Shown here one piece after another: positions 54,672 through 56,278 of a DNA stretch of 64,000 bases. The notes beneath the pieces are model-generated. The model saw only the letters and a list, made by a program, of their open reading frames with translations. It was not told the origin of the DNA and made no database searches. Source of the DNA: Chloroflexota bacterium (GTDB taxonomy: Bacteria; Chloroflexota; Dormibacteria; CF-121). The first letter of the stretch is position 1. Each line of letters starts with the position of its first letter. The stretch spans positions 9,317-73,316 of the forward strand of contig VBDY01000122.1 of assembly GCA_005882775.1 (NCBI GenBank), in the 5' to 3' direction. The position numbers and the translations under genes are program-made.

Positions 54672-54908
54672 CTAGGGGTCGCCCATCCAGTCGGCAGCGT
54701 GGGGGAGGGGATGGTGGCCGTGGGTGGGCTGGAAACGCAGCACACGTTCGATATCTCGCTCTCGGTAAAGGCGCTCGCGGCGGATCCCCTGCCTGTAGCT
54801 CTTGAGGACCCCGCGGCTGACGTAGGCGTAGAGGGTGGCTGGCTTGACGCCGAGCATGGCGCAGGCCTCGGTTGAACTCAGATACGGCTCACCCTGTATT
54901 TGGATCAC
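54672..54908 (-). CDS. Small HTH DNA-binding protein (excisionase/MerR-AlpA-like HTH_17)
   Basis: LSSTEACAMLGVKPATLYAYVSRGVLKSYRQG. Divergent from the HMGL synthase gene. Confidence 0.7.
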   Translation of the reverse strand: MIQIQGEPYLSSTEACAMLGVKPATLYAYVSRGVLKSYRQGIRRERLYRERDIERVLRFQPTHGHHPLPHAADWMGDP

Positions 54909-54958
54909 GACTAATCAATGTATTGCAATGCAAATCAATGTACGCGTACAATTATCGC
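54909..54958. promoter_or_regulatory. AT-rich divergent intergenic region with nested palindromes and a direct repeat (candidate operators)
   Basis: aATCAATGTAttgcaatgcaaATCAATGTAcgcgtaca. There is a direct repeat of ATCAATGTA spaced 20 nt, a near-palindrome TTGCAaTGCAA and a perfect 12-bp palindrome TGTACGCGTACA. Confidence 0.45.
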
Positions 54959-56278
54959 ATGGCAGATGGATCGACGCCAAACCTCTTCCGGGACAGCTTT
55001 CCCTACTCGAGGGTGCCGCCTTTCCGATTCGAGGCCGACCCGGTACGCATGGCCCTCCCGAAGGACGTGTGGATCACAGACACCACGTTTCGGGACGGTC
55101 AGCAGGCCCGGGCGCCTTATACCGTCGACCAGATCGTCCACCTCTACGACCTCCTGGCTCAACTCGGCGGACCGATCGTCCGCCAGACGGAGTTTTTCGC
55201 TTACACCGACAAGGATCGCGAGGCGATCAACGCCTGCCGCCTCCGGGAGGGACCCGAAGTGACCACCTGGATGCGGGCGTCGAAAGACGATCTGCGCGTC
55301 GTTCAGCCCACCGGCGTCAAGGAGACCGGCATCCTGATGTCCGCCTCCGACTACCACATTTTTCTCAAGATGAAGCGCACTCGCGAACAGGCGATGAACG
55401 ACTACGCGGATATCGTGCAGGCCGTGATCGACTCCGGCATCAGGCCGAGGTGTCATCTCGAGGACCTGACCCGGGCCGACCTCGACGGATTCGTAGCGCC
55501 CCTGGTCGCCCGCCTGAACGAGCTGGGCTCGAGGGCGGGCGTACCCGTGAAGTTCCGGCTCTGCGACACCATGGGCTTCGGACTGCCCTGGGCGGAAGCC
55601 TCGCTGCCCCGAGGTGTTCCCCGGCTGGTGCGATTTTTCACGGACACGCTCGGAGTCTCTCCGGAAAATCTCGAATGGCATGGCCACAATGACTTTCACC
55701 GCGGCGAGGTGAACACCGTGACCGCCTGGTTGTATGGTTGCGCCGCCGCGAACGGCTCATGGTTCGGCTTTGGCGAGCGAACCGGAAACCCCCCGCTCGA
55801 GGCGCTGGTTATCGACTACCTGGCGCTCAAGGGCGATCAGCCCGGCGTCGACCCGCGCGCCATCACCCGGGCCGCAACTTATTTCCGCGAGGAGCTGGGC
55901 ACACCTCTGCCGGCCAACTATCCGTTCGCCGGGGCGGGCTTCAACGTGACCAGCGCCGGCATCCACGCCGACGGCCTGATGAAGAACGAGGAAATCTACA
56001 ACATTTTCGATACCGCGAAAATCCTCGATCGCCCGCTCGGCATCACCGTCAATGACCGGTCGGGGCTCGCCGGTGTCGCCTACTGGGTCAACACGACGAT
56101 GGGGCTCAAGGGGTCCCGGCAGCTGGCCAAGGACGACCCGGCCATCGTTGCCATACACGCCGAGGTCGAGCGCCAGTACCGGGGTGGGCGCACCACGGGG
56201 TTCTCGCCCGACGAGATGCTCGCTCTGTCACGCCGCCATCTCGGCGCTGTCACGAACGCCCGCGACCGATCCAAGTAG
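54959..56278 (+). CDS. HMGL-like 2-oxoacid:acetyl-CoA condensing enzyme (homocitrate/isopropylmalate/citramalate synthase family, catalytic domain only)
   Basis: TDTTFRDGQQ signature and a ...HGHNDFHRGEVN metal-binding context. No LeuA-type C-terminal regulatory domain. Confidence 0.8.
   Translation: MADGSTPNLFRDSFPYSRVPPFRFEADPVRMALPKDVWITDTTFRDGQQARAPYTVDQIVHLYDLLAQLGGPIVRQTEFFAYTDKDREAINACRLREGPEVTTWMRASKDDLRVVQPTGVKETGILMSASDYHIFLKMKRTREQAMNDYADIVQAVIDSGIRPRCHLEDLTRADLDGFVAPLVARLNELGSRAGVPVKFRLCDTMGFGLPWAEASLPRGVPRLVRFFTDTLGVSPENLEWHGHNDFHRGEVNTVTAWLYGCAAANGSWFGFGERTGNPPLEALVIDYLALKGDQPGVDPRAITRAATYFREELGTPLPANYPFAGAGFNVTSAGIHADGLMKNEEIYNIFDTAKILDRPLGITVNDRSGLAGVAYWVNTTMGLKGSRQLAKDDPAIVAIHAEVERQYRGGRTTGFSPDEMLALSRRHLGAVTNARDRSK

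Follow-up and report, generated by a model that had tools for sequence, protein, structure and literature searches.

The 64,000-nucleotide (nt) stretch of contig VBDY01000122.1 from a Chloroflexota bacterium (assembly GCA_005882775.1) that is analysed here, referred to as the window throughout, contains two genes that diverge from a spacer of only 50 nt, one encoding a condensing enzyme with an HMGL-like catalytic domain and the other a small protein with a helix-turn-helix (HTH) domain (Table 1). We propose that the enzyme is a Re-citrate synthase, that its gene is transcribed as a leaderless message from a compact promoter, and that the HTH protein is a BldC-like factor which locally regulates this gene along with its own. 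Taken as a whole, this is an explanation that we hold with slightly more confidence than doubt. The gene calls, coordinates and divergent layout in an earlier reading of this DNA from its letters alone (hereinafter the original prediction) all turned out to be correct. Most of what the locus contains is of a known kind: the gene of a Re-citrate synthase, a decarboxylase gene that is unrelated to it and was inserted nearby, and a local HTH gene whose control region is conserved. Modest novelty attaches to three points, in that a Re-citrate synthase gene has a candidate regulator, Si- and Re-type enzymes occur side by side in one lineage, and the HTH protein is linked to a family of fusions between an HTH domain and a citrate synthase that has not been described before.

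The condensing enzyme and its family

Re-citrate synthase (EC 2.3.3.3), which is related to the HMGL and homocitrate synthase proteins, makes citrate from acetyl-CoA and oxaloacetate and thus serves as an alternative first enzyme of the tricarboxylic acid (TCA) cycle. The sole Pfam domain of the window protein is HMGL-like (PF00682, 104.6 bits; residues 38-305 of 439), in agreement with the proposal that it is a condensing enzyme of the TDTTFRDGQQ type that consists of the catalytic domain only and lacks the LeuA regulatory domain. All 19 matches among the NCBIfam models fall far under the respective cutoffs, the best one being to TIGR02660 (NifV) with 130 bits against 462.9, and no model of the LeuA, CimA or NifV families reaches its cutoff. 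By contrast, the protein is 49.8% identical over 434 amino acids (aa) to SYN_02536 of Syntrophus aciditrophicus and 45.1% identical over 432 aa to CKL_0973 of Clostridium kluyveri, the identity to NifV, to LeuA and to the Re-citrate synthases of the Dehalococcoides/Heliomicrobium type being 23-27%; these values are slight underestimates, given that the reference sequences come from a supplement read by optical character recognition (PMC12016533). In a neighbour-joining tree, the window protein lies within the clade to which both characterised Re-citrate synthases belong. The comparison with the NifV, CimA, LeuA and Re-citrate synthase clades that had been recommended as a check thus places the enzyme, by identity and by tree topology, with the Re-citrate synthases, and the notion of an orphan condensing enzyme is not supported; Re-citrate synthases belong to central metabolism.

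The sequence features expected of this family are present. Residues R45, G47, Q49, E168, D169, T171, R172, H241, H243, D245, E273 and R274 are invariant in an alignment of 16 family members, in at least 90% of which D46 is present as well, and the motifs RDGQQ, EDxTRAD, HGHND and GERTGN are constant across the family. With CKL_0973 and SYN_02536, the window enzyme shares an HMGL-like core followed by a family-specific C-terminal region, the lack of a LeuA_dimer domain, and the longer versions of the motifs, ITDTTFRDGQQ, PRCHxEDxTRAD, EWHGHNDF and GERTGNPP; unlike the Syntrophus protein, it has no long C-terminal extension. The closest proteins in the databases (76-100% identical) come from soil metagenomes and from metagenome-assembled genomes (MAGs) labelled Candidatus Dormibacteraeota or Chloroflexota, and some homologues are annotated as citrate (Re)-synthase by the Joint Genome Institute (JGI) and NCBI. 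The family is a compact one: of 1.84 billion clustered proteins, 189 representatives match at E <= 1e-30. At 50% identity or above, it extends to Syntrophales, Desulfobacterota, anammox Planctomycetota, Omnitrophota, Nitrospirota and many Clostridia, largely through MAGs from lineages known as anaerobes. On the strength of these sequence relationships, we regard it as highly probable that the window enzyme belongs to the C. kluyveri type of Re-citrate synthases, which are known from the oxidative branch of the TCA cycle.

The setting of the enzyme nevertheless differs from that of its characterised counterparts. The host is a Dormibacterota/Chloroflexota-like soil lineage with 66% GC rather than a classical anaerobe. 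The gene has a predicted leaderless promoter and a divergent HTH neighbour that is missing from about 150 loci of other phyla; the Re-citrate synthase gene of Heliomicrobium has been described as isolated in the genome (PMC12016533). Furthermore, in contrast to the characterised Re-type enzymes, the window enzyme coexists with a Si-type one (TIGR01800), the gene of which is located 9 kb away, so that two non-homologous types are encoded in one genome. Because of this nearby gene, the Re-type enzyme is not the only citrate synthase-type enzyme of the organism and is probably a second one that is used conditionally; conditional use would explain the existence of a dedicated regulator. A soil Dormibacterota-like lineage endowed with both types also raises the question of when each of them is used, for example, at low oxygen.

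The start of the synthase gene is shared, as ATG or GTG, by 11 of 12 relatives. Two longer frames, of 446 and 468 aa, were considered and rejected since the respective upstream codons, ATG at 54938 and TTG at 54872, are not kept in frame in the relatives. The first of these frames corresponds to a public protein that is 100% identical to the window enzyme (P0001) and has been called with 446 aa, from the in-frame ATG located 21 nt before the start adopted here; this ATG lies inside the synthase promoter and its frame is not conserved among the relatives.

The divergent control region

The spacer between the two genes (GACTAATCAATGTATTGCAATGCAAATCAATGTACGCGTACAATTATCGC) has a GC content of 36%, against a window mean of 66.3% (standard deviation 6.4%, in 50-nt windows), and nowhere in the 64 kb other than in the segment 54888-54967 does a 50-nt window contain 38% GC or less; the AT-richness remarked upon in the original prediction is therefore real. 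So is the direct repeat: AATCAATGTA is found at 54913-22 and again at 54933-42, spaced 20 nt, and the 64 kb contain just these two copies, even when up to one mismatch is allowed. Written as TCAAYRT-N13-TCAAYRT, the phased pair occurs once in the window, against 0.03 occurrences expected, and is found again at the homologous position in the relatives. Tandem Repeats Finder, when applied to the spacer, did not score any repeat.

So what in this spacer is maintained by selection? We aligned the spacers of 13 distinct Dormibacterota-lineage loci; among the best 600 candidate stretches in each of the scans of genomes and metagenomes, there were 2 and 9 close relatives, respectively. The 40 nt at 54913-54952 contain on average 1.56 bits of information per column. 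For comparison, the value is 0.40 bits in the 6 nt that separate the -10 hexamer from the start codon, and 0.8-1.15 bits at the third positions of codons in the genes on either side. The blocks without any variation are TCAA (54915-18), GCA (54925-27), AAATCAA (54932-38), A54942, G54944 and TA.AAT (54947-52). The TCAA cores are the centres of the direct repeat, and the 20-bp spacing between them is constant in all 13 loci; a third CAA core (GCAA, 54925-28), which is part of the -35 hexamer, is located midway between the two boxes, such that three cores follow each other in 10-bp phase.

The conserved segment also includes the predicted promoter of the synthase gene, TTGCAA-18-TAnAAT, which was detected by a promoter scan in the window and, independently, in two related loci (L001 and L088). 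The -10 hexamer is separated from the synthase start by 6 nt in the window and by 5-7 nt in nearly all loci, and a Shine-Dalgarno sequence is absent before the start in the aligned loci. Because the start codon follows the -10 hexamer so closely and no Shine-Dalgarno sequence precedes it, the synthase mRNA is predicted to be leaderless, the transcription start being deduced from the same layout. The 60-aa open reading frame (ORF) on the other side of the HTH gene is preceded by a TAGAAT of its own at a distance of 6 nt from the ATG, and, because this is the same TAnAAT-6-ATG arrangement, leaderless expression appears to be common in this genome.

The promoter of the HTH gene is more variable. 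A 41-nt stretch adjoining this gene is absent in the window and in loci L008 and L094 and present in the other relatives. In the long form, the reverse complement of box 1, TTGACT, constitutes a -35 hexamer at a distance of 17 nt from a conserved TAnnnT, which is the likely HTH promoter; in the short form, the right half of box 1, TACATT, would serve as the -10 hexamer instead. Box 1 is retained with or without the 41-nt stretch, although the indel alters the geometry of the HTH promoter, and its conservation is therefore independent of any single fixed geometry. Box 2, in turn, is situated in the spacer of the synthase promoter, which is normally unconstrained. Together, the location of box 2 and the survival of box 1 across the indel suggest that the boxes serve to bind a protein and are more than promoter hexamers.

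The operator role envisaged in the original prediction for the repeat and the palindromes of this region has to be divided accordingly. All the sequences are present and the direct repeat is conserved, whereas the palindromes are not supported as operators. The 12-nt palindrome TGTACGCGTACA at 54939-50 is perfect, but the window contains 43 perfect palindromes of this length, so that one in the spacer is not unusual. In the 13-locus alignment, its outer pairs are broken in all relatives, which makes the palindrome unique to this genome; the inner core, TAyGCrTA, is palindromic in approximately half of the loci, with a single covarying pair, and its outer TA supplies the first two letters of the -10 hexamer. 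The other element, TTGCAaTGCAA (54923-33), largely overlaps the -35 hexamer and shows no compensatory maintenance. Both candidates for dyad operators were thus rejected, the 12-mer as unconserved and the other as tracking the -35 hexamer.

The HTH protein and its possible role

The HTH protein matches the HTH_17 family (PF12728) with 46.4 bits, the gathering score being 27, and MerR_1 with 32.2 bits, which confirms that it is a small, excisionase-like HTH protein transcribed divergently from the synthase. Its AlphaFold model (predicted local distance difference test, pLDDT, of 79) is a winged helix with a poorly ordered tail and without a coiled coil, in which two short N-terminal strands are followed by helices at residues 12-19 and 23-31, a beta hairpin, a helix at residues 50-58 and the disordered tail. 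The best fold matches in the Protein Data Bank (PDB) are the BldC-DNA complexes 6AMA and 6AMK, with TM scores of 0.79-0.84 (normalised to BldC) and, for the best-superposed chains, root-mean-square deviations of 1.4-2.0 Å over 51-55 residues at 27-33% identity; the next matches are Xis of mycobacteriophage Pukovnik, RacA and the N-terminal domains of MerR proteins. At the sequence level, the similarity is marginal, with phmmer E values of 0.052 and 0.46 for two BldC sequences. BldC, a MerR-like protein of 68 residues with no domain for dimerisation or effector binding, is monomeric in solution, assembles head-to-tail into oligomers on direct repeats of 9 bp, and functions as a pleiotropic regulator (PMC5859096).

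Like BldC of Streptomyces, the window protein is a small, single winged helix with neither a coiled coil nor an effector domain, and the presumed target DNA, like that of BldC, contains AT-rich direct repeats in helical phase. Given this common architecture and the presence of phased direct repeats next to the HTH gene, it would be reasonable to expect that the protein binds these repeats in the orientation-dependent manner of BldC. The two systems differ in that the BldC core is AATT-N4-C, compared to TCAA here, and in that BldC serves a developmental regulon, whereas the HTH protein is tied to a single metabolic gene. Furthermore, unlike BldC, the window protein ends in an additional tail, LPHAADWMGDP (within H-P-L-P-H-A-A-D-W-M-G-D-P), which is conserved across the homologues as strongly as the HTH domain itself. 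The classical MerR activators have the common winged-helix fold, and their binding sites overlap the spacer of the promoter, but they possess the dimerisation coiled coil and the effector domain that the 78-aa protein lacks, and they recognise a dyad operator in a spacer of typically 19-20 bp, as opposed to direct repeats and a spacer of 18 bp. Excisionases, or recombination directionality factors (Pukovnik Xis gp37, PDB 4J2N), resemble the window protein in being small HTH_17 winged helices of a class that binds phased direct repeats; however, the HTH gene belongs to a stable chromosomal block devoid of integrase, att or other mobile-element context. Integrase families are not represented among the called genes within 8 kb on either side in loci L001-L006, and L175, with 2.5 kb on either side, has the same gene block without an integrase. 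An excisionase role was therefore rejected; the score against the excisionase model TIGR01764, 27.6 bits, falls just below the cutoff of 28.8.

How closely is the HTH protein linked to the synthase? All Dormibacterota-lineage loci that include upstream sequence have the HTH gene as the divergent neighbour of the synthase gene, whether they were retrieved through the synthase or through the HTH protein. Within 3-4 kb of about 150 Re-citrate synthase loci of other phyla, no HTH homologue is detectable, with the exception of a single locus, L032, from a Binatia-like MAG. Here, the Re-citrate synthase gene diverges from the gene of a fusion protein of approximately 430 aa (2446-3789 of that locus, minus strand) that combines HTH_17 with Citrate_synt (PF00285) and the N-terminus of which is homologous to the window HTH protein (E of about 1e-12 to 1e-13), including an identical segment of the recognition helix, TLYAYVSRG, and an LPxAxxW tail motif; the window protein ends after the tail and has no citrate-synthase-like domain. 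The L032 copy of the fusion gene is frameshifted, which may be a long-read assembly error. In Candidatus Binataceae, the fusion is abundant, PF12728 and PF00285 being combined in all 120 best matches, and is annotated simply as citrate/2-methylcitrate synthase; its enzyme domain, in which the His/His/Asp catalytic motifs are retained, scores below every curated citrate synthase cutoff (265 against 421 bits). The fusions most closely related to that of L032 are also divergent from an HMGL-like gene (the sublineage of L032, L167 and L168), whereas the more distant fusions, that is, the majority, do not adjoin a Re-citrate synthase gene. In one of the fusion loci, L174, the fusion gene immediately follows an aconitase gene.

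A tree of 161 Re-citrate synthases shows Planctomycetota-type sequences, rather than the Binatia clade, as the sister group of the Dormibacterota clade, and, because the two clades that include a pairing with this HTH domain are not sisters, the pairing seems to have arisen twice. Beyond the synteny within the lineage, this Binatia pairing is the strongest evidence of a functional link between the HTH protein and citrate synthesis. A search of the literature on HTH_17 or excisionase-type domains linked to citrate synthase, and on these fusions, returned nothing relevant. The fusions presumably account also for an annotation artefact, namely the label 'citrate synthase' that JGI attaches to many 78-aa stand-alone HTH proteins, which would stem from HTH-citrate-synthase fusions in the orthology model.

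From these observations, a mechanism can be outlined in which the HTH protein most likely is the local transcription factor of the synthase gene as well as its own autoregulator; we consider the regulator-target link itself to be about evenly poised, local regulation being plausible. The synthase gene would be transcribed, without a leader, from TTGCAA-18-TACAAT. Monomers of the HTH protein would bind in the same orientation on the phased TCAA-core repeats, with box 1 just upstream of the -35 hexamer, box 2 in the promoter spacer and the weaker CAA core over the -35 hexamer. Because the two promoters are arranged back to back within 50 nt, such binding would control the access of RNA polymerase to both of them. 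It might result either in repression, by occlusion of the -35 hexamer and the spacer, or in activation, by distortion of the DNA, of which occlusion would be the simpler reading; the conserved tail may be a docking motif. The binding to the boxes, the sign of the regulation and the signal that is sensed are what we infer here from the observed family memberships, gene order, promoters and repeats, fold, and homology to the fusions. If the pairing is functional, the HTH protein would become the first candidate regulator for a Re-citrate synthase gene, as well as a case of a BldC-like direct-repeat binder that controls a gene of central metabolism outside Actinobacteria. The Binatia fusions point to a connection of citrate synthase proteins with transcription that is as yet unstudied.

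An extension of this scheme, which we consider unlikely, would have the 78-aa protein as the free-standing DNA-binding module of an undescribed class in which the citrate-synthase-like domain is the metabolite sensor of a BldC-like factor, the two parts being fused in Binatia; the tail would then dock in trans on the Si-type or the Re-type enzyme, and the occupancy of that enzyme by TCA metabolites would set the transcription of the Re-type gene. In an AlphaFold model of one fusion (P0418, built from 36 sequences), residues 1-105 have pLDDT below 50, so that the docking of the tail cannot be read from it.

Several considerations weigh against the proposed explanation. Additional copies of the box pair were sought in the 64-kb window and none was found, such that the motif is not tied to the HTH protein through a regulon. 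The same box pair was not found upstream of eight Binatia fusion genes, because of which the recognition motif receives no support that could be transferred from one group to the other; these eight loci (from the group of L032 and L167-L174) share a CTTGAC-N17-...AT promoter with an apparently leaderless GTG start, and a CTTGAnTCAAG palindrome is confined to a subclade of the fusions and is located further upstream. The gene block is syntenic in all Dormibacterota-lineage loci, so that adjacency alone is weak evidence. Read on the other strand, box 1 is a good -35 hexamer (TTGACT) for the HTH gene in most relatives, and part of its conservation may simply reflect promoter function. The protomer sites of BldC are 9 bp apart, compared to 20 bp here, or 10 bp when the middle core is counted, and the 78-aa protein has no obvious sensor domain. 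As for the enzyme, 50% identity to characterised proteins is not proof of identical substrate specificity. Finally, Re-citrate synthases are classically oxygen-sensitive enzymes from anaerobes, and the present lineage is generally regarded as aerobic.

Alternatively, the HTH protein could be a general BldC-like or nucleoid-associated factor, or the domesticated relic of an excisionase, that stands next to the synthase through synteny, the elements of the spacer being two promoters or the site of some other factor. We view this possibility as real although rather unlikely. The synteny, which in the closest loci extends up to about 17 kb, renders the adjacency unspecific, box 1 provides most relatives with a near-consensus -35 hexamer 17 nt from the TAnnnT before the HTH gene, and the middle CAA core coincides with the -35 hexamer of the synthase; moreover, BldC itself is pleiotropic (PMC5859096), and the TIGR01764 score misses the excisionase cutoff by little. 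However, a general factor leaves the invariance of box 2 unaccounted for, this box having no promoter role on either strand, as well as the retention of box 1 where the 41-nt deletion shifts its position relative to the HTH start; nor does it explain why proteins of this HTH subfamily are found fused to a citrate-synthase-like domain, or why, in another phylum, the subfamily is again encoded divergently from a Re-citrate synthase of a different clade. The relic version is further at odds with the absence of an integrase or att-like context in any locus.

A second alternative concerns the enzyme only: it could be a paralogue within the Re-citrate synthase clade that employs another 2-oxoacid, with a homocitrate-, citramalate- or phosphonomethylmalate-type product, in a specialised pathway. 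With a Si-type gene 9 kb away, the need for a second citrate synthase is not evident, the cutoffs of the curated NCBIfam models are all missed, and a PDB sequence search yielded no Re-citrate synthase structure with which the specificity residues could be compared. Set against this are the position of the enzyme between two characterised Re-citrate synthases, to which it is 45-50% identical and colinear over the full length, and the conserved neighbourhood (FbaB, the 60-aa ORF and DUF3352), in which genes of a specialised pathway are absent; as to the Si-type neighbour, TIGR01800 covers 2-methylcitrate synthases too, so that this gene may not encode a housekeeping citrate synthase. We therefore judge another 2-oxoacid substrate to be quite improbable and retain the identification of the enzyme as a Re-citrate synthase.

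Neighbouring genes and other elements of the window

In relatives with synthases 77-80% identical to the window enzyme, the gene block consists of DeoC/FbaB, an ORF of 60-63 aa, the HTH_17 gene (minus strand), the HMGL-like gene (plus strand) and a DUF3352 gene; the closest loci show the wider synteny, from an MBL hydrolase gene to a TetR-led fatty-acid operon, and the same block is recovered when the HTH protein instead of the synthase is used for retrieval. The presence of an Hdc-family decarboxylase and FbaB upstream was correctly predicted, with an NCBIfam score above the cutoff for Hdc. The further suggestion that the synthase works together with Hdc and FbaB in a small biosynthetic module based on an amino acid, governed by the HTH protein through palindromic operators, is very improbable: Hdc is a bona fide histidine-decarboxylase-family protein and lies close to the other genes in this window only, but it is found in 0 of 176 fetched related loci, it is set apart from the synthase by a hairpin of high stability, two convergent genes and the region of the divergent promoters, the 12-nt palindrome is unconserved and one of many in the window, and the synthase comes from a family of central metabolism. 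FbaB, for its part, is syntenic within the Dormibacterota-lineage block only and is absent near the Re-citrate synthase genes of other phyla, so that the co-conservation of neighbours expected of a module is absent for Hdc and confined to this lineage for FbaB.

Because Hdc is missing from all related loci, it is most simply viewed as a lineage-specific insertion in the sublineage of the window; its GC content at third codon positions is host-like (0.85). In the relatives, the small ORF begins 30 nt after the FbaB stop codon. The borders of the insertion are located at 53230-53312 and 54432-54484, and the sequence after the FbaB stop codon (GCTATCACGCAATCCGCAC) is similar to the small-ORF promoter region of the relatives (GCGATACAATCCGCCC), which suggests a short duplication at the insertion site. 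The small ORF itself is present in every relative with sufficient flanking sequence (phmmer E from 1e-23 to 1e-32) and has no Pfam or NCBIfam match; whether it belongs to the system is uncertain. In terms of annotation, the locus thus calls for several corrections: the 'LeuA-like orphan' becomes a Re-citrate synthase, the 78-aa 'citrate synthases' of JGI become DNA-binding proteins, and Hdc is placed outside any cluster.

Table 1. Coordinates of the control region, the genes it separates and other features of the window
Feature	Position	Strand	Remarks
HTH_17 / BldC-like gene	54672-54908	-	78 aa, GTG start
Divergent control region	54909-54958	.	50-nt spacer, AT-rich minimum of the window
Probable Re-citrate synthase gene	54959-56278	+	439 aa, ATG start, HMGL-like/DRE-TIM catalytic domain
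Box 1 of direct repeat, AATCAATGTA	54913-54922	+	TCAA core 54915-18 invariant
Box 2 of direct repeat, AATCAATGTA	54933-54942	+	AAATCAA 54932-38 invariant in 13/13 loci; within promoter spacer
Predicted sigma-70-like synthase promoter	54923-54952	+	TTGCAA 54923-28, 18-nt spacer, TACAAT 54947-52
Candidate -10 of HTH gene, TACATT	54917-54922	-	8 nt before GTG; found by inspection, missed by promoter scan
60-aa ORF, no family	54485-54667	+	convergent with HTH gene
Hdc gene	53313-54431		upstream of HTH/synthase pair; NF002748 443 bits, cutoff 305
FbaB, class I fructose-bisphosphate aldolase gene	52153-53229		upstream; NF006707 646 bits
Si-type citrate / 2-methylcitrate synthase gene	44579-45715	+	TIGR01800 515 bits, cutoff 421; PF00285 466 bits
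ORF with LeuA_dimer domain	42474-43385	-	303 aa

A GC-rich hairpin (54443-64) directly follows Hdc, and a second copy with 1 mismatch is present at 3596-3617, so that the recurrence of this motif, one copy of which lies between Hdc and the HTH/synthase pair, is as had been described; two such copies were obtained in 0 of 100 shuffles. The hairpin is part of a longer element of about 37 nt, TACyGCCTCTwTTGCGCGCGTTACGGCGCGCG, at 3577-3617 and 54424-54464 (plus strand). It folds with -26 kcal/mol (z = -3.5) and has no U-tract; an Rfam scan of the whole window matched no family, so that the hairpin is not a known RNA.

The stand-alone LeuA regulatory domain noted elsewhere in the window is real: the 303-aa ORF contains LeuA_dimer (108 bits) preceded by a Phd/YefM-antitoxin-like N-terminus that, with 25.9 bits, stays below the gathering score. 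The ORF is irrelevant to the Re-citrate synthase because the entire family of this enzyme lacks that domain; its product may be a leucine-responsive DNA-binding protein. Shortly after the Si-type gene, at 45740-46318 (plus strand), a 192-aa ORF encodes an HNH nuclease domain nearest to the HNH domains of IscB and Cas9 (a weak match, 44 bits), and a syntenic HNH gene is found in relatives (L001, 6-497). Directly downstream of the synthase gene, two tandem DUF3352 paralogues follow (56312-58363 and 58557-60149, plus strand), the first with a CxxC...CxxC zinc-ribbon-like N-terminus and a Pro/Gln-rich linker; in all relatives, one DUF3352 gene follows the synthase gene.

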